From Acidimicrobiia bacterium (GTDB lineage Bacteria; Actinomycetota; Acidimicrobiia; Spongiisociales; ZC4RG35): 44,129 bases of DNA. This document shows, in pieces, positions 16,478 through 27,065 of the stretch (position 1 is its first letter; every line of letters starts with the position of its first letter). Location: positions 1-44,129 of the forward strand of contig JAWWBL010000003.1 of the NCBI GenBank assembly GCA_033720975.1, written 5' to 3'. The notes under the pieces are model-generated. The model saw nothing but the letters and a program-made list of their open reading frames with translations, ran no database searches and was not told the DNA's origin. The translations under genes and the position numbers were made by a program.

Positions 16478-17599
16478 ATGGCCCGGAGAATCGGAATCCT
16501 CACTGCCGGAGGCGACAGCCCAGGGCTGAACGCCGCGATACGGGCCGTTGGCAAGTCGGCTCAGCGAGCCTACGGCATGGAGGTCATTGGCTTTCTCGAT
16601 GGCTTCGTGGGCTTGATGCAGAACCGTTACGTCAAGCTGGAGTCTGACGACCTCTCCGGAATCCTCATCCGCGGCGGAACGATTCTCGGGACCAGCCGGG
16701 CCAAGGTGCATCGGATGGACATGGGCGACGGGGCCGAGCGAGACATGCGCCAGCTGATGAGGGAAGTTGTCGAACAGCACGAGCTCGAAGCTCTCGTGTG
16801 CCTAGGCGGTGACGGCACCACACGCAATGCCCTCCGTCTCTCGCGGGTCGGCGTCCCGGTTCTCACCTTGCCCAAGACCATCGACAACGACGTTGCCGGA
16901 ACCGATGTCACGTTCGGCTTCGATACGGCGATGAGTATCGCCACCGAGGCTATCGACCGTCTCCATTCGACTGCCCACAGCCACCATCGGATCATGGTCG
17001 TGGAGATCATGGGACACACGGTCGGCTGGCTGGCTCTCGGGGCGGGTATAGCGGCCGGGGCCGACGTGATCCTCATCCCGGAGATCCCCTACGACGTCGA
17101 CGCAGTCGCCTCGTCGATATCGGCCAGGAAAGCCGCGGGAAGCTCTTTCTCGATCATGGCTGTGGCCGAGGGCGCGATCTCGGCTCCGGACGCGGCGCGA
17201 AGAGACGAGCTGATCGAAAGACGCGACCGGGCCAAAGGGGAGGAGAAGAGGGCTCTCAAGAAGCAGATCAAACAACTCGACTCGCATCGCGTGGGTGGAA
17301 CCGCTTCGCTGGCCAAACGCCTCTCGGAGATGACCGGGCTGGAGTCGCGGATCACGATCCTCGGTCACGTCCAAAGGGGAGGAACCCCGACGGCGACTGA
17401 CCGGCTGCTGGCCACACGGTTGGGCATAGCCTGCGTCGACTACATAAACGAGGGGATTCACGGTGTGATGGTAGCGGCGCGCGGAGACACCACAGCCCCG
17501 GTCCCACTCGAGGAAGCGGCAGGAAGGATCAAGGCTGTTCCCCTCGATCACCCGTGGATAACGGTCGCCCGGCACTTGGGCGTCTCGCTGGGCGAGTGA
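16478..17599 (+). CDS. pfkA: 6-phosphofructokinase
   Basis: [38 protein letters not shown] lies 6 nt after TACGAT. Confidence 0.93.
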
Positions 17600-19917
17600 G
17601 CACGCCACAGCGCATCACCTGCATTGGCGGAGGCCCGGCCGGTCTCTATCTGGCCATTCTCCTCAAAAAGGAGCGCCCGGACTTCGACGTCACGGTTTAC
17701 GAGAGGAACACGCCGGCCGACGCGTTCGGCTTCGGTGTCGTGTTCTCAGATGAGACTTTGGAGCACTTCGAAGAGGCCGATCCACCCTCCTACCGTTCGC
17801 TAGCCGAATCGTTCAAGTACTGGGGGGACATCGAGGTCCGCCACTTCTCGGGCCACTCCTTCCGTTCTGGCGGTCACGGGTTCGCCGCGGCAAGCCGTCG
17901 TCGCCTTCTCGAGATACTGGCGGACCGCGCCGCCGACCTGGGTGCCGTCCTCAAGTTCTCCTCCGAGGTCCCTGACCTCGACTCTGTCCCGGATTCGGAC
18001 CTGGTCGTGGGCGCCGACGGTGCCAATTCGATGGTTCGTTCGGCGCTGTTCGAACACCTGGGGCCAACGGTCGACTGGCGCACCAACAAGTACGCCTGGT
18101 TCGGCACCCCAAAGGTCTATGAGAGATTCCACTTCATCTTCGAAGACACCCCGGCCGGGATGGTCTGGGCCCACATATACCCTTACTCTGACGAAGGCAG
18201 CACGTTCATCGTCGAGATGGCTCCAGAGACCTGGCGCGGCCTCGGCTTCGATCTGACTGAAGCCAACACGTTCCCACCCGGCGTTAGCGACGAGCACGCG
18301 ATCGCTCGGTGCGAAGAGTTGTTCGCCTCCCACCTCGAGGGAGCCGGCCTGGTTGGGAACAACTCGAAGTGGCTCCAGTTCCCCACCATCACCTGTGAAA
18401 GCTGGCACCAGGACAACGTCGTCCTCATGGGGGACGCGGCCCACACGGCGCACTTCTCAGTCGGGTCCGGCACCAAGCTGGCGATGGAGGATGCCATCTC
18501 CCTGGCCAGATTGCTCTTGGAGGGTGGGGAGCTTCCAGAGGTGCTGAATAATTACGAACGGGAGCGGAGACCGGCCGTCGCAAGCCTCCAGCGGGCGGCG
18601 AAAGCAAGCCTCGAGTGGTTCGAGGGAGCGGATCGCTACCGGACCATGGAGCCGGAGCAGTTCGTGTTCAGCCTCCTGACCCGTAGCCAGAGAGTCACCT
18701 ACGACAACCTTCGACTTCGGGATCCGGAATACATGACGAGTGTGGACGCGTGGTACGCCTCCAGCGATCACGGCTCTCCCGCCGAGCCCGACTCTTCCAT
18801 CCCCCCGATGTTCCACCCGTTTCAGGTTCGTGACCTCGTCCTGGCGAACAGGGTCGTCGTGTCCCCAATGGACCAGTACTCGGCCATAGAGGGGATGCCA
18901 ACGGAGTGGCACCTGGTCCACCTGGGGAGCAGGGCAGTGGGCGGAGCCGGACTGGTCATGACAGAAATGACCTGTGTCTCGCCGGAAGGACGTATCAGCC
19001 CAGGATGCACGGGGATATGGACCGAGGATCAGGCGCGCCAGTGGGAAAGGACGGTCGAGTTCATCCACACGAACACAGAGGCAAAGATCGGCCTACAACT
19101 CGGCCATTCCGGGCGGAAGGGCTCGACCAAGCTGATGTGGGAAGGCGACAACGACCCTCTCGACGCAGGGAACTGGGAGATCATCTCGCCTTCTCCAATC
19201 CGCTATCAACCCGGAAATCAGGTCCCACGGGAGATGACCCGGGAGGACATGGGCCGCGTCCTGGACGAGTTCGTCCGTTCCGCCCGACTCGGGTCTGCGG
19301 CCGGCTTCGACATGCTCGAGCTTCACATGGCCCACGGGTATCTCCTTTCGAGCTTTCTCACGCCGCTCGCAAACCAGCGGTCCGACGAGTACGGCGGATC
19401 CCTGCAGAACCGGATGCGGTATCCCCTCGAAGTGTTCGAAGCAGTCAGGGAGGTCTGGCCCGAAGACAGCCCGATGTCGGTCCGAATCTCCGCGACGGAT
19501 TGGGTTCCCGGGGGGTTCGAGGGGGACGACGCGGTGGCGTTCGCATTCGAACTGAAGAAGCGGGGCTGCGACCTCATCGACGTCTCGACAGGGCAGACAA
19601 CGATTTATGCCGATCCCGAATATGGGAGGCTGTACCAGACCCCGTTCTCGGACCGGATCCGCAACGAGGTCGGCATCCCCACCATGACAGTGGGAGCGGT
19701 GTCTTCAATCGACGACGTGCACAACATCCTGGTGGCCGGTCGGGCCGACCTGTGCCTGCTCGCCCGGCCGCACCTGGTCGACCCTTATTGGACGATGAAC
19801 GCCGCTATCGACCTGGGATACGAGGGCCACGCCTTTCCCAACCAATACCTCTCCGGGCTGGGGGCTCGGAGGCGTGAGCAGGACCCGATACCGCCCGACG
19901 TCTTTCGAGGCAGATGA
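17596..19917 (+). CDS. Bifunctional anthraniloyl-/salicylyl-CoA monooxygenase-reductase (FAD monooxygenase + OYE-type domain)
   Basis: N-terminal [16 protein letters not shown] and [22 protein letters not shown]-terminal [32 protein letters not shown] and [10 protein letters not shown]. Confidence 0.9.
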
Positions 19918-20581: not shown

Positions 20582-21217
20582 ATGAGTGGCCCGCTACGGA
20601 GTCTGGTGTATGTGGGGGATCCGATGTGCTCGTGGTGCTGGGGATTTGCACCCGAGGTCGAAAGTCTCGCCTCCTCGTACCCGGTCGAGGTGATCGTGGG
20701 CGGTCTCCGTCCTGGCCCCATGTCTCAGGAGCTCGACGACCAGATGGCCGGCTTCTTGCGACACCACTGGGTGGAGATCGCCGAGCGGACCGGGCAGCCC
20801 TTCGACACTGCCTTTCTCGACAGGCGTGACGGATGGAGGTACGACACCGAGCCTGCCGCCATCGCCGTCATCGTGATGAGAGGCATGAACGAGGAGCAGA
20901 CGCTGAACTACTTCTCTGCGCTGCAGCGCGCCTTTTATGCCGAAGGTGTCGACGTCACCGACTTCGGTGAACTGGCCCGACTGGCAAAGGGATTCTCGGT
21001 CGACGTCACCGAGTTCGAGGAGAGGCTGCGGACCGAAGAGGCGAAGAAGACAGCCTGGAGCGACTTCTCACAGGCACGCAACTGGGGCATCTCGGGCTTC
21101 CCAACGCTGGTAGGCCGACTCGTCGACGACCGACTCGCCCTCCTGGCCCGTGGCTGGGCTCCACGGGACCTCATCGAAACCAGGATCGAATCTCTCGAAG
21201 ACGTCCTCACAGGTTGA
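20582..21217 (+). CDS. DsbA family thiol-disulfide oxidoreductase
   Basis: YVGDPMCSWCWGF (CxxC), cis-Pro loop GISGFPTL, SD GAGGA upstream. Confidence 0.9.
   Translation: MSGPLRSLVYVGDPMCSWCWGFAPEVESLASSYPVEVIVGGLRPGPMSQELDDQMAGFLRHHWVEIAERTGQPFDTAFLDRRDGWRYDTEPAAIAVIVMRGMNEEQTLNYFSALQRAFYAEGVDVTDFGELARLAKGFSVDVTEFEERLRTEEAKKTAWSDFSQARNWGISGFPTLVGRLVDDRLALLARGWAPRDLIETRIESLEDVLTG
21146..21217 (+). repeat. Left copy of imperfect direct repeat (intact 3' end of dsbA)
   Basis: GCCCGTGGCTGGGCTCC...GGACCTCATCGAAACCAGGATCGA...GGTTGA is repeated at 22784-22854. Confidence 0.85.
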
Positions 21218-21330
21218 GCCGCACTCGGGGCACGTAGCGGTCCCACCCGAGCTTGTCGAGCCTGACGGCTTGTTGGTGGACGATTCCGGGTTGGCCGGAC
21301 CCGGGCTCGTCCTTTCCGTCGCTCGATCCG

Positions 21331-21359
21331 TATAAGTCCGGTTTGCCCGTTCGCTGACA
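21331..21359 (-). promoter_or_regulatory. Leftward ECF-type promoter TGTCAG-N14-GGACTTATA
   Basis: Plus strand TATAAGTCC (21331-21339), a 14-nt spacer, then CTGACA (21354-21359). The boxes are identical to those of the rightward motif. Confidence 0.65.
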
Positions 21360-21368
21360 GCGAGATCA

Positions 21369-21397
21369 TGTCAGTGGGGTACGTTGCTGGACTTATA
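21369..21397 (+). promoter_or_regulatory. Rightward (autoregulatory) ECF-type promoter TGTCAG-N14-GGACTTATA
   Basis: TGTCAG at 21369-21374, a 14-nt spacer, then GGACTTATA at 21389-21397, directly upstream of the ECF sigma gene. Confidence 0.7.
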
Positions 21398-21435
21398 ACT
21401 GTCATGAGGTTCGGTGAGTTCGAGAGTTGATTGGC

Positions 21436-21984
21436 ATGTCTCCTGCTGACAAGAGGTTCGCTGAGATCTACTCCGCCCACTTCAAGGCAGTACATGCGTA
21501 TTGCCGACGTCGCACTTCGGCGGATCGCGTCGACGATGCGACGGCTGAGGTATTCCTCGCTGCTTGGCGAAGAATCGACGAGGTTCCGCCTGGAGCTGAG
21601 GCTCTCCCGTGGCTCTATTCGGTCGCGTACGGAGTGGTGTCGAATGCTTGGCGCGGGGCGTCGAGACGCAAGAAGCTCGACAGAAAGCTGAGATCGATAG
21701 GTGCCGAGTTCGCTCCACTCCCTGACGATGTCGTGGTCATGCGACAGGAAGCCAGACAGGTTCTCACCGCTTTGGAGCGCCTGAGTCGTTCGGATCGAGA
21801 GCTTCTCCGTCTGTCGATCTGGGAAGAGCTCGACAGCTCCAGTCTCTCCGTGGCTCTCGGCATCTCCAAAGATGCCGTCAATCAGCGACTCTCCAGAGCC
21901 CGCAGGAGGCTCGCCAGGGAGTACGACCGGCTAACGACAAAACAAACGACGTCATCCGTTGCTCAGGAAGGAGGTGCATGGTGA
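21436..21984 (+). CDS. ECF RNA polymerase sigma factor
   Basis: Region 2 (VHAYCRRR...DDATAEVFLAAWRR...PWLY) and region 4 HTH (LSRSDRELL...ALGISKDAVNQRLSRARRRL). Alternative TTG start at 21427. Confidence 0.92.
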   Translation: MSPADKRFAEIYSAHFKAVHAYCRRRTSADRVDDATAEVFLAAWRRIDEVPPGAEALPWLYSVAYGVVSNAWRGASRRKKLDRKLRSIGAEFAPLPDDVVVMRQEARQVLTALERLSRSDRELLRLSIWEELDSSSLSVALGISKDAVNQRLSRARRRLAREYDRLTTKQTTSSVAQEGGAW

Positions 21985-22724
21985 CAACGGAATCGCAGAT
22001 TGTCGCGCTCATGGACGAAGCAAACCCTGTCCCTGATCTCGACAAATACCAAGTGAACGAGGTTGATGTCGCTGCGTACCTCGCCACTCTCGAACGGAGG
22101 AGCCAGAAGATGACATCAACAGATACCAGGCCAACAACCGAGAAGCAGCCGAAACGATCCATGACCCTGCGGCTGGCCACTCTGTTGCTGGTGGTAGTGG
22201 CTGGTGTGATCGCGATCCTTTTGAGCCAAAGCGATGGCGATGCGCCTGTTGCCACCGACCCCACACCGTCGACGTCCGACGAATCTGCCCTCCTCGCTGC
22301 GTACGCCGCAGCTCAGAACGGCGGGGACGTTGACACGGTGATGGGACTGTTCGGATTCAACTATCCAGTGAAGCGACACCCCTTTGCCGTCAACGACTAC
22401 ATGGACAGCTCGACCGAGCTCAGAGCCACGGAAGCGCTAATTGCAGGGATCCGTGGATCAGGGGCAGGTCTCGAGTTCTTTGACATCGAGATAGGCGACC
22501 CCAACAGCGTCACCGCCCCCGACGTCACGTTCAGTTGGAGGTTCTACTACGCCGCCGACGGAACTACGCCAAGCGGCTGGTTCTGGGAGCGTGATGGTGC
22601 ACCCGAGGTTCCCCAAGGCGAGGCGGGTTGCATTGGAGGTCGAGACGGGAAAGCATGGGTTCAAGCAGGCAGGTTCCACGAGTTCAACTGGGGCTTTTAC
22701 GATCCCGCAATGTGCGGCGAATAG
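21978..22724 (+). CDS. Putative anti-sigma factor (cytoplasmic N-terminus, one TM, extracytoplasmic domain)
   Basis: Overlaps the sigma stop and has SD GGAGG. TM LATLLLVVVAGVIAILL. C-terminal domain starts YAAAQNGGDVDTVMGLF (SnoaL/NTF2-like opening) and has two Cys. Confidence 0.7.
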   Translation: MVTTESQIVALMDEANPVPDLDKYQVNEVDVAAYLATLERRSQKMTSTDTRPTTEKQPKRSMTLRLATLLLVVVAGVIAILLSQSDGDAPVATDPTPSTSDESALLAAYAAAQNGGDVDTVMGLFGFNYPVKRHPFAVNDYMDSSTELRATEALIAGIRGSGAGLEFFDIEIGDPNSVTAPDVTFSWRFYYAADGTTPSGWFWERDGAPEVPQGEAGCIGGRDGKAWVQAGRFHEFNWGFYDPAMCGE

Positions 22725-25832: not shown

Positions 25833-27065
25833 CTACCGGGGACTGGCAATACCGCTCTTCCTGTCCAGAAGAATGAAGGTGCTCATGTCTCCCTTCCCCT
25901 TGACGGAGACGACGCCACGGGGTTCACAAACGAAGTCGTTCCGGATCAACTCGTAGGTCGCCGCTGTGATCTGAATCGATCCCGGGACTCCTCCGGATTC
26001 CATGCGACTGGCCACATTCACGACATCTCCCCACACGTCGTAGGAGAACTTGTGGGTTCCTACCACCCCTGCAACTAGGGGCCCCGAATTGATACCGATA
26101 CGGAAGGTGATCTTGTGGCCGTCGAACACGGCCTGTTCGGTGTGATCGCGAATGCGGAGGGCGAGCTCGGCTATGGCGTGGGCATGGTCGGGGCGCGCCA
26201 GGGGAACCCCTGCGGCGACCATGTACTCGTCGCCAACCGTCCTGATCTTCTCGAGGCCAAGTTCCTCGACGAAGCCGTCGAATGTGGCGAAAACATCGTT
26301 GAGCAGGTCGATCAGTTCCGGAGGCGTCATCGCGGCTGACATCGGCGTGAACCCGACCATGTCGGCAAACAGAACCGACGCCGACTCGTAGTCGTCCGCT
26401 ATCAGAGTGCTTCCCGCTTTGAGTTGCGCCGCGATCTCCCTGGGCAGGATGTTGTGCAGCAGATCATCCGATTGTGCTTGGAAGCGGTTGCGTTGCCTCA
26501 CGAAGTAGGCCATACCGGCGTACACGAATGCCGTTGCCACGATCACGTTGATCGCTGTGACCACATCCTCTCCTGTGTCCAGGTGGGACGGTTCGATGAA
26601 GTTTGGCAAGACCACCGCAAGTGCAACTGTGAACAGGTAAGCCAGGAACCACCAGAAGGCAGCCCTGACACTGAGGGTGATCAGCGCACCGACGACCGCC
26701 ACCGTCCCGTGGAGAATCACCATCCCGGACGGGACCAGCCCACCTTGCGCAACGGTTTCGACAAGGGGGTGCAGGAGGAGGACTATCAGAGTTGCTGAGA
26801 CGACTCCAACGAACCATGACGGTCTGACTCGAAGCAGAACCAAGGCAGCAATGCTGGTAAGCGAAACTGCGAAAAGGACCAGCCCGGTTACAGAGTCGCC
26901 CTCCGAGAAAGTTATGAATCCGAACCACAGCCGAACCACCGCACTGAAGAAGAGGTAGCCCACGAAAATGCGCCTGGCACCGCGTTGTATTTCCGACTCA
27001 CCCGAGTGGGCGCCGATGGAGAGCACAGATTCCCACCGCTTTCTCGTACGGGGGAACGCTGGCAT
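25833..27065 (-). CDS. Membrane-bound class III adenylate/guanylate cyclase
   Basis: About six TMs, then LLHNILP, LFADMVGFT, EKIRTVGDEYM, RIGINSGP, YDVWGDVVNVASRMES. Confidence 0.93.
   Translation of the reverse strand: MPAFPRTRKRWESVLSIGAHSGESEIQRGARRIFVGYLFFSAVVRLWFGFITFSEGDSVTGLVLFAVSLTSIAALVLLRVRPSWFVGVVSATLIVLLLHPLVETVAQGGLVPSGMVILHGTVAVVGALITLSVRAAFWWFLAYLFTVALAVVLPNFIEPSHLDTGEDVVTAINVIVATAFVYAGMAYFVRQRNRFQAQSDDLLHNILPREIAAQLKAGSTLIADDYESASVLFADMVGFTPMSAAMTPPELIDLLNDVFATFDGFVEELGLEKIRTVGDEYMVAAGVPLARPDHAHAIAELALRIRDHTEQAVFDGHKITFRIGINSGPLVAGVVGTHKFSYDVWGDVVNVASRMESGGVPGSIQITAATYELIRNDFVCEPRGVVSVKGKGDMSTFILLDRKSGIASPR

Follow-up and report, generated by a model that had tools for sequence, protein, structure and literature searches.

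Mirrored twin motifs upstream of an ECF sigma factor gene from Acidimicrobiia are probably back-to-back promoters of that sigma factor

ECF sigma factors, counted as the third main way in which bacteria transduce signals, are a popular source of orthogonal parts in synthetic biology. That ECF promoters can be autoregulated, and that ECF promoters can serve divergent genes, is textbook knowledge. Bidirectional promoters that result from symmetry of the −10 element were reportedly described by Warman et al. in 2021; these are said to share a near-palindromic −10 hexamer and to use the housekeeping sigma factor. The element reported here resembles them in that divergent starts are predicted from a symmetric promoter region, but differs in that it would consist of two complete, separate −35/−10 units of an ECF sigma factor.

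The recognition of ECF promoters was dissected by Todor et al. (2020, PMC7776599), whose saturation mutagenesis identified the Asn84 position of RpoE as setting the −13/−12 specificity. They required a −35 box of 7 bp and a −10 box of 5 bp, 16–18 bp apart, and their motif search ran "only on the forward strand" (PMC7776599). The accessible part of the supplement of Casas-Pastor et al. (2021, PMC7826278) gives TGTCA-type −35 boxes for ECF41, ECF103, ECF131, ECF250 and ECF288, and contains none of GGACA, CGGAC, GGGCA, GTGACA or TGACA, nor the extended −10 box GG(A/G)C(A/G/T)T. Compared with the autoregulatory ECF promoters catalogued in the available portions of these two sources, the promoter predicted at our locus is alike in its two blocks, its position within 150 bp upstream of the gene, its 16-bp spacer and the tracking of the −13/−12 base by the residue equivalent to Asn84, but it is doubled as exact mirror copies. 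The terms "bidirectional" and "palindrom" are absent from the main texts of PMC7826278 and PMC7776599. Among the matches listed for the literature on divergent or autoregulated ECF sigma factors we found no description of a mirrored or bidirectional ECF promoter design, and among those listed for the −10 box text CGGACAT with sigma factor there was, judging by titles, no promoter-motif paper.

By analogy, the nearest functional precedent is the hrpL-hrpJ region of Pseudomonas syringae, where the holoenzyme of the ECF sigma factor HrpL represses hrpL by occlusion from the adjacent divergent hrpJ promoter (PMC5263251). As at our locus, an ECF-type promoter points away from the sigma gene and adjoins the sigma gene's own promoter, and in that system the bound holoenzyme feeds back on sigma expression. 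The two arrangements differ in that the hrpL promoter is sigma-54-dependent, the divergent promoter drives the hrpJ operon and the two promoters are not mirror copies, whereas our locus appears to carry one ECF-type promoter twice, with no gene for the divergent copy to drive.

We analyzed a stretch of 44,129 nucleotides from an Acidimicrobiia assembly (GCA_033720975.1, contig JAWWBL010000003.1, positions 1 to 44,129), referred to below as the window. The features relevant here are listed from left to right, with L071 denoting an ortholog whose sigma factor is 76% identical.

20582 to 21217, plus strand: left neighbour, gene for a DsbA-like thioredoxin-fold protein, co-directional with the sigma gene
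21278 to 21312: conserved hairpin GGACGA-TT-CCGGGT-loop-ACCCGG-GC-TCGTCC (inverted repeat I2), 12–46 nt downstream of the predicted leftward start
21324 (±1 nt), minus strand: predicted leftward start, a G preceded by C; the RNA would open GAGCGAC...
21331 to 21339, minus strand: putative extended −10 box for leftward transcription, GGACTTATA when read on this strand, identical in L071
21354 to 21359, minus strand: putative −35 box for leftward transcription, TGTCAG when read on this strand; in 32 related loci the inner boxes are likewise mirrored
21360 to 21368: gap of 9 nt between the inner boxes
21369 to 21374, plus strand: putative −35 box of the rightward unit, TGTCAG, equal to −35 to −30 if A21391 is −13
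21389 to 21397, plus strand: putative extended −10 box of the rightward unit, GGACTTATA, identical in L071
21404 (±1 nt), plus strand: predicted rightward start in the RpoE register, a C-then-A pyrimidine-purine step 13 nt past A21391
21404 to 21430, plus strand: 8-codon mini-ORF MRFGEFES, which begins at the predicted +1 and whose TGA overlaps the TTG at 21427
21436 to 21984, plus strand: ECF sigma factor gene, 182 aa from the ATG at 21436, with an in-frame TTG at 21427
21978 to 22724, plus strand: downstream membrane-protein gene, 248 aa, single-pass, overlapping the sigma gene

As written on the plus strand, the 67-bp array (21331–21397) reads TATAAGTCC-N14-CTGACA-N9-TGTCAG-N14-GGACTTATA. 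TGTCAG-N14-GGACTTATA is therefore present twice in mirror orientation, with all 15 box positions mirrored and both arm spacers 14 nt long; the outer boxes form inverted repeat I7 (9 nt, 100% complementary). The two spacers, read in the same promoter sense, are alike at 2 of 14 positions. This architecture bears out the initial annotation, made from the bare sequence, which had described a bipartite motif occurring twice in divergent orientation, 9 bp apart, with identical boxes and spacer length.

When one mismatch was allowed, TGTCAG-N14-GGACTT had two matches in the window, both exact and both in the element, against an expectation of 0.27, and two matches were also obtained in 2 of 100 shuffles of the window. 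The initial annotation had further suggested a genome scan for this pattern. In the assembly (1,996,241 bases in 209 contigs, 62.6% G+C, 81.7% complete), the full pattern, its 12-position core, a version with a 13–15 nt spacer and GGACTTATA alone were each found exactly twice, only at the element.

The gene at 21436–21984 encodes an ECF (group 4) sigma-70 family sigma factor. The protein (182–185 aa) matched Pfam Sigma70_r2 (1.9e-8) and Sigma70_r4_2 (8.1e-10) and scored 71.7 bits against NCBIfam TIGR02937 (sigma70-ECF; cut-off 42.9), and the nearest solved structures are the ECF sigma factors CnrH (1.2e-9) and SigL (3.8e-7). No specific NCBIfam ECF subfamily reached its cut-off, the best being TIGR02989 with 59.4 bits versus 124.55. 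The overlapping downstream gene encodes a protein with an N-terminal part of about 60 residues, one hydrophobic helix and a C-terminal part of about 165 residues. Single-pass anti-sigma factors usually have this layout, and we consider the protein a candidate anti-sigma factor on the basis of its position and topology only; it matched no Pfam family, and its NCBIfam match to CU044_5270 was weak (23.4 bits, cut-off 100). The peptide sequence of the mini-ORF is not kept in relatives.

None of the groups listed above with TGTCA-type −35 boxes fits this sigma factor; for two of them the reasons are as follows. ECF41 sigma factors, according to what Wecke et al. reportedly described in 2012, carry a fused C-terminal regulatory domain; the focal protein, with 182 aa, has no domain other than sigma-2 and sigma-4 and was not assigned to ECF41. 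The accessible part of the Casas-Pastor supplement lists TGTCACA at −35 and CGTC at −10 for ECF41 (PMC7826278). A TGTCAC-type −35 box and, in some paralogs of the family, a CGTA core in the −10 box (GGACGTA, loci L052 and L032) resemble this promoter, whereas the corresponding letters of the focal −10 box are CTTA. For ECF131, the same part of the source gives TGTCA at −35, CGCAC at −10 and a putative anti-sigma factor with an N-terminal transmembrane helix at gene position −1 (PMC7826278). ECF131 was rejected as well, as far as that description goes: position −1 is occupied here by the DsbA-like protein, and the membrane protein lies at +1.

We placed the rightward unit in the register of E. 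coli RpoE by setting A21391, the third base of its extended −10 box and the base that covaries with sigma residue 70 (see below), to −13; the register is thus inferred from the covarying base. It then comprises TGTCAGT (21369–21375, −35 to −29), 16 bp and CTTAT (21392–21396, −12 to −8). As read from the sequence, the 16-bp spacing of this TGTCAGT/CTTAT unit is standard ECF geometry. The right unit (21369–21397) also lies on the gene's strand and within about 150 bp upstream of the ATG at 21436, as the criterion for autoregulatory promoters has it. A promoter scan of 21150–21480 found no sigma-70-like promoter.

Both predicted start sites, about 80 bp apart, coincide with conserved letters in the closest relatives. 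At the rightward +1 a conserved (A/G)TGAG starts, and the leftward +1 is precisely the first letter of a conserved GAGCA(A/G)C, which often precedes a small hairpin (GCAAC-GGGGG-GUUGC); the focal leftward transcript would open with GAGCGACGGAAA.

The explanation that we favour, and that we consider likely, is a pair of back-to-back twin promoters of the downstream ECF sigma factor. The 67-bp element would be read in both directions by RNA polymerase carrying that sigma factor. Transcription from the rightward unit would start at about 21404 and drive the sigma gene together with the overlapping membrane-protein gene, giving positive autoregulation. The leftward unit, an exact mirror copy, would initiate minus-strand transcription near 21324, and the transcript would pass straight into the strong conserved hairpin at 21312–21278.

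We compared upstream regions of sigma homologues collected from 61 related genomes, from paralogs in the same genome and from named records. The subfamily is expanded in the order: a match at E ≤1e-20 is present in 41 of the 61 relatives, with up to 10 copies per genome. At E ≤1e-28, 5 of 121 genomes in a phylum-wide sample matched, just one of them outside the order. Among the 85 regions obtained, one (L026) comes from a genome flagged as unpublished and lies outside the 32 loci discussed below.

A blind search was run for a mirrored pair of 6-nt and 8-nt boxes with arm spacers of 11–17 nt, scored out of 14. At least 13 of 14 mirrored positions were found in 33/85 real upstream regions, in 3/85 segments of 330 nt taken from inside the same sigma genes and in 0/85 shuffled upstream regions. 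With the threshold at 12.5, 36 of the 85 regions scored, and in 32 of these 36 the right box lies 0–75 nt before the estimated start. Against the favoured explanation, the twin is seen in only 33–36 of the 85 homologous loci. The motif design is accordingly present upstream of homologous sigma genes, where the initial annotation had advised looking for it, and its outer boxes are exact in L071.

The 32 twin loci, counted from the locus lists, represent 21 genomes, with four family codes and two named MAGs. Their right box lies in most cases 28–52 nt upstream of the estimated start. Normalised on the commonest box types, the geometry is TGTCA(C/G)-N14/15-GG(A/G)C(A/G/T)T. The loci were picked by mirror score, which makes box-identity statistics partly circular. 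Many homologous loci carry TGTCA(C/G) at the equivalent position. Arm spacer lengths are equal in 29 of the 32, the inner-box gap ranges from 0 to 37 nt, and the identity between the two arm spacers is 0.315, about chance at the given composition. Equal arm spacers, a variable inner gap and unrelated spacer sequences together argue for two independent units and not for one dimer site.

The closest ortholog found, L071, belongs to an Acidimicrobiia MAG. It retains TATAAGTCC and GGACTTATA letter for letter, has GTGACA and GGTCAG as inner boxes, and its spacers differ from those of the element, the left one being 1 nt longer. Symmetry alone would also be expected of a chance inverted repeat or of the ends of a small mobile element. 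The motif is, however, unique in the assembly, kept at the orthologous site in L071 and recurrent in homologs (33/85 loci versus 0/85 shuffles), by which this explanation, whose probability we regard as negligible, is effectively refuted.

Homologs outside the order, a further point against the twin reading, show single rightward units, GGAAAC-N14-GGACATGA in L110 and TGTGACA-N13-CCGGACA in the Actinokineospora homologs L073 and L075. A GGAC-type −10 box is therefore family-wide. As far as sampled, the mirrored twin appears to be a feature of Acidimicrobiales.

Within the host genome the boxes differ among paralogs: C3 has TGTCAG/GGACTTAT, C20 has TGTCAC/CGGGAGT and C146 has GGACATGT. Whatever protein reads them must hence be paralog-specific, and each module has a single DNA-binding protein of that kind, the sigma factor.

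We aligned 31 sigma proteins beside their own boxes. At residue 70, the Asn in VVSN-AW of the focal sigma factor, the family has Asn or His, and this choice tracks the outer box's third base: His occurs with GGG in 9/9 cases and Asn with G(G/A)A in 17/18, so that 26 of 27 scored loci agree, scored loci being twin loci with Asn or His at residue 70 and a recognisable GGRC-type core. The exception, L042, combines Asn with GGGAGA and is a weak locus, its box ending 7 nt short of the start. Four loci were left unscored, namely L031, with Arg and GGGCGT, and L056, L024 and L062, which have no scorable core.

On the best maximum-likelihood tree, built from 29 rows with the focal columns removed and with L042 and L024 dropped beforehand, residue 70 and the box base each change seven times, always together. 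Resolution of this tree is poor, with 4 of its 26 inner branches starred, and because only two independent pairs lie on well-supported branches, a sign test cannot reach significance. In a phmmer alignment with the sigma-E region-2 construct (2mao_A/4lup), residue 70 stands opposite Asn84 of E. coli RpoE, within TWLYRIAVNTAKN. Given this position, the outer box behaves as a −10 element read by sigma region 2. For the sigma-4 domain and the −35 box, no comparable rule was evident by eye in the alignment.

We therefore regard it as well supported, at the level of sequence comparison, that the motif is the adjacent ECF sigma factor's own promoter, and a probably autoregulatory one. The initial annotation had proposed just such a cognate promoter, and homolog conservation, fixed spacing, paralog-specific boxes and the covariation of residue and base all speak for it.

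Boxes that vary by locus while remaining complementary would equally be expected of covarying stems. The boxes could accordingly pair as the stems of a hairpin, formed by RNA or by single-stranded DNA, in a read-through transcript (outer stem 9 bp, inner stem 6 bp, 14 × 14 internal loop), and the covariation of the arms would then reflect base pairing and not protein recognition. The plus-strand RNA of 21328–21400 does fold stably, at −32.2 kcal/mol (z = −4.65; 0 of 200 shuffles as stable), the main argument for this reading, but the minus-strand fold reaches only z = −1.8, and the spacers are non-complementary family-wide, as their identity of 0.315 indicates. Wobble pairs are not favoured either: the 20 mismatches among 448 arm positions, tallied from loci chosen for high arm identity, comprise 11 of transversion type, 5 that would pair as G-U on the minus strand and 4 that would do so on the plus strand. 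Rfam gave no match in 20900–21700 at E up to 10. Base pairing would moreover leave unexplained why a sigma-2 residue tracks one box base, and why the boxes keep a fixed, promoter-like distance with the right box about 40 nt before the start codon. We judge this explanation quite improbable; selection on protein recognition rather than on a hairpin, as the initial annotation had argued, holds family-wide.

Palindromic operators upstream of regulator genes are common, and the perfect mirror symmetry would also suit an operator at which a dimeric or tetrameric transcription factor, in place of a promoter pair, regulates the sigma gene. A single oligomer fits poorly with halves of fixed internal spacing that lie anywhere from 0 to 37 nt apart. 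Paralog-specific boxes in one genome would call for a separate factor for every module, yet the sigma factor is the only candidate protein there and its own residue takes part in the covariation. The likelihood of such an operator is in our view slight.

On the reading as twin promoters, the target of the leftward unit is the less obvious part. This mirror copy had been thought to drive a divergent target, which our results do not support. At the focal locus there is no divergent gene; the left neighbour (20582–21217) is encoded on the plus strand, co-directional with the sigma gene, and the leftward copy faces the conserved hairpin. Strand calling by GC3 to the left of the element was ambiguous (about 62% GC) and was replaced by a Pfam scan, in which 9 of 46 candidate ORFs had matches. 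The left genes vary among loci: divergent ones encode a SnoaL-cyclase (L093, L097) or a subtilase (L011), each beginning just beyond the hairpin, and co-directional ones encode the DsbA-like protein (focal locus), a rhodanese (L013) or another sigma factor (L004). The leftward unit thus has no constant protein-coding target.

The hairpin occurs twice in the assembly, in both cases immediately to the left of the twin boxes that belong to C3 and C20, the two closest paralogs. In all 15 loci with the hairpin, its distance to the twin boxes is about 15–45 nt, and the sigma coding sequence begins about 130–160 nt past it. Compensatory changes support its outer stem: in 2 of 12 sequences a C-G pair is replaced by U-A, and the L093–L097 group has GGGCGA/TCGCCC. 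A pattern search for the hairpin core with one mismatch in 301 genomes of the order was noisy in GC-rich DNA, where a control pattern also matched; from it we retained 5 of 30 fetched loci, which have a confirmed extended hairpin, four with a full sigma match and L093 with a match that ends at about 44 residues. More generally, 23 of 30 predicted leftward RNAs have z < −2 and a long GC-rich hairpin 15–60 nt from +1. In several loci the hairpin evidently also serves as terminator of the co-directional upstream gene; at the focal locus, a search of 21150–21480 on either strand found no intrinsic terminator, and the hairpin at 21278–21312 has no U-tract.

Because the locus has no divergent gene, the output of the leftward unit, if it is active, would be either a short non-coding hairpin RNA or divergent initiation as such. 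The latter could act through competition or occlusion between polymerases, with the −35 boxes 9 bp apart, or through supercoiling coupling.

These considerations also allow for a different role of the left copy. The rightward unit alone might be the productive promoter, the left copy being an abortive or non-productive docking site of the same holoenzyme that dampens feedback; docking 9 bp from the real −35 box would occlude or compete with it, amounting to negative autogenous control. Polymerase footprints should overlap when −35 boxes lie 9 bp apart. The focal locus has no divergent gene, and in 23 of 30 loci a strong hairpin directly follows the predicted leftward start; both are compatible with such a site, and occlusion of hrpL from the adjacent divergent hrpJ promoter offers a precedent (PMC5263251). 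Overlap is not conserved, however, with an inner gap of 0–37 nt; GAGCA(A/G)C at the leftward +1, with a pyrimidine-purine step in many loci, resembles a real start; and in L093, L097 and L011 a divergent gene lies just past the hairpin. We consider a mere docking site unlikely, though worth bearing in mind.

More broadly, and tentatively, since we give it somewhat less than an even chance, the ECF paralog family of Acidimicrobiales might be built on one twin-promoter plan, in which the mirror copy fires into a hairpin 15–60 nt away and works as a governor or insulator of the feedback. Under such a plan the copy may give rise to a very short RNA that depends on the sigma factor and, in the closest subfamily, contains a conserved hairpin; alternatively, the firing itself may be what matters. 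An autoregulated ECF promoter is in itself already known; what appears to be new is the recurrent mirror-twin design with its outward unit facing a hairpin. If the plan is true, ECF circuits would follow a design principle that has gone unrecognised, and nature would offer a set of bidirectional promoters orthogonal to one another.

Should the reading as twin promoters hold, it would supply natural sigma/promoter pairs from the almost unstudied class Acidimicrobiia and a testable rule, visible by eye, that pairs Asn with A and His with G, the residue being the one equivalent to RpoE Asn84 and the base lying in the −10 box. The outward copy could moderate or insulate positive autoregulation, comparable to the experimentally studied but differently arranged HrpL case. 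The design recurs in many related genes and may show how ECF switches are tuned.

Finally, we scanned the assembly for further sites (TGTCA plus GGACTTATA, up to two mismatches, spacer ±1) and obtained five weak matches, the same number as for a control with reversed boxes. With no other site found in the assembly, which covers 82% of the genome, the sigma factor is probably a local regulator of its own small operon, to which its regulon would then be limited, and does not govern a large regulon. A new ECF regulon, as initially proposed, was thus an overstatement, and the geometry of the motif is ordinary for ECF promoters. Of that first interpretation, the cognate promoter and the selection on protein recognition stand, whereas the divergent target and the new regulon do not.

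As an observation on the occurrence of this DNA, 10 sequencing runs were matched, none of them an RNA run, and the one strong match, a tidal-flat metagenome DNA run, contains 0.98 of the sequence words.

To the left of the twin promoters, the two mirror-image predicted -35/-10 units beside the ECF sigma gene, we found a conserved hairpin, which has a second copy in the same genome (G000).

21278-21312: conserved hairpin, 35 nt
Contig C20, near 7484, minus strand: second copy of this hairpin

The same hairpin is present in the loci of homologous sigma genes L002, L003, L004, L006, L008, L011, L013, L034, L071, L093 and L095-L097, and it was found only to the left of those twin promoters that belong to the closest sigma subfamily. 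The inner stem is invariant (CCGGGT/ACCCGG), the loop is conserved as T-GGCC-NN, and the outer stem shows compensatory changes between loci. The hairpin is not followed by a U-tract, a terminator scan of 21150-21480 giving no site on either strand, and an Rfam search of 20900-21700 found no match for it. Additionally, a further conserved stretch, ATGCCGGTTATGGGCGG, was observed about 10-30 nt left of the hairpin in L002, L006 and L071, and in a diverged form in L008. With this stretch, some relatives have a conserved non-coding region that reaches over 100 nt leftward from the twin boxes.

On the leftward strand, the predicted RNA carries at its 5' end, 5-25 nt past the predicted +1, a small hairpin whose loop is rich in G. 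It was found in loci L008, L003, L013, L031, L010, L011, L034, L050 and L065, in the form GCAAC-GGGGG-GUUGC or GGGCA-ACGGGGAGGGAC-UGCCC. The loop resembles a Shine-Dalgarno sequence, and no start codon follows it.

At the predicted rightward start, a mini-ORF and a direct repeat were identified.

21404-21430: mini-ORF MRFGEFES, 8 codons, beginning at the predicted +1
21399-21421 and 21446-21468: direct repeat D1

Beginning at the predicted +1, the mini-ORF would be translated without a leader, and its stop codon TGA overlaps the TTG at 21427 that is in frame with the sigma gene. A stretch of 23 nt around the mini-ORF shares 83% identity with the stretch 47 nt downstream that encodes part of the sigma N-terminus (..KRFAEI..). 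Among the closest relatives, (A/G)TGAG recurs at the predicted rightward +1, and the mini-ORF peptides are not conserved.

Five paralogs of the sigma, 38-51% identical to it, are encoded in the same genome.

C20:6815-7309: sigma paralog
C9:24830-25309: sigma paralog
C140:1536-2054: sigma paralog
C146:339-878: sigma paralog
C34:16635-17099: sigma paralog

In the mirror search, C20 and C146 both qualified, each with its own box sequences, and by eye those on C9 and C140 have mirrored outer boxes too. Together with their boxes, the paralogs appear to form a naturally occurring set of sigma/promoter pairs that are candidates for orthogonality.

Two other coding regions of the window were also noted.

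25833-27065, minus strand: adenylate/guanylate cyclase gene, about 4 kb downstream
17554-19917, plus strand: 787-aa ORF

In L093 and L097, the gene to the left of the twin promoter is divergent and encodes a SnoaL-cyclase. Cyclase genes near sigma loci may link this sigma family to cyclic-nucleotide signalling, or may be coincidental. In the 787-aa ORF, an FAD-dependent monooxygenase domain (FAD_binding_3) at the N-terminus is followed by an Old-Yellow-Enzyme-type domain (Oxidored_FMN) at the C-terminus; the ORF may be either a fusion or two genes merged by the ORF finder.
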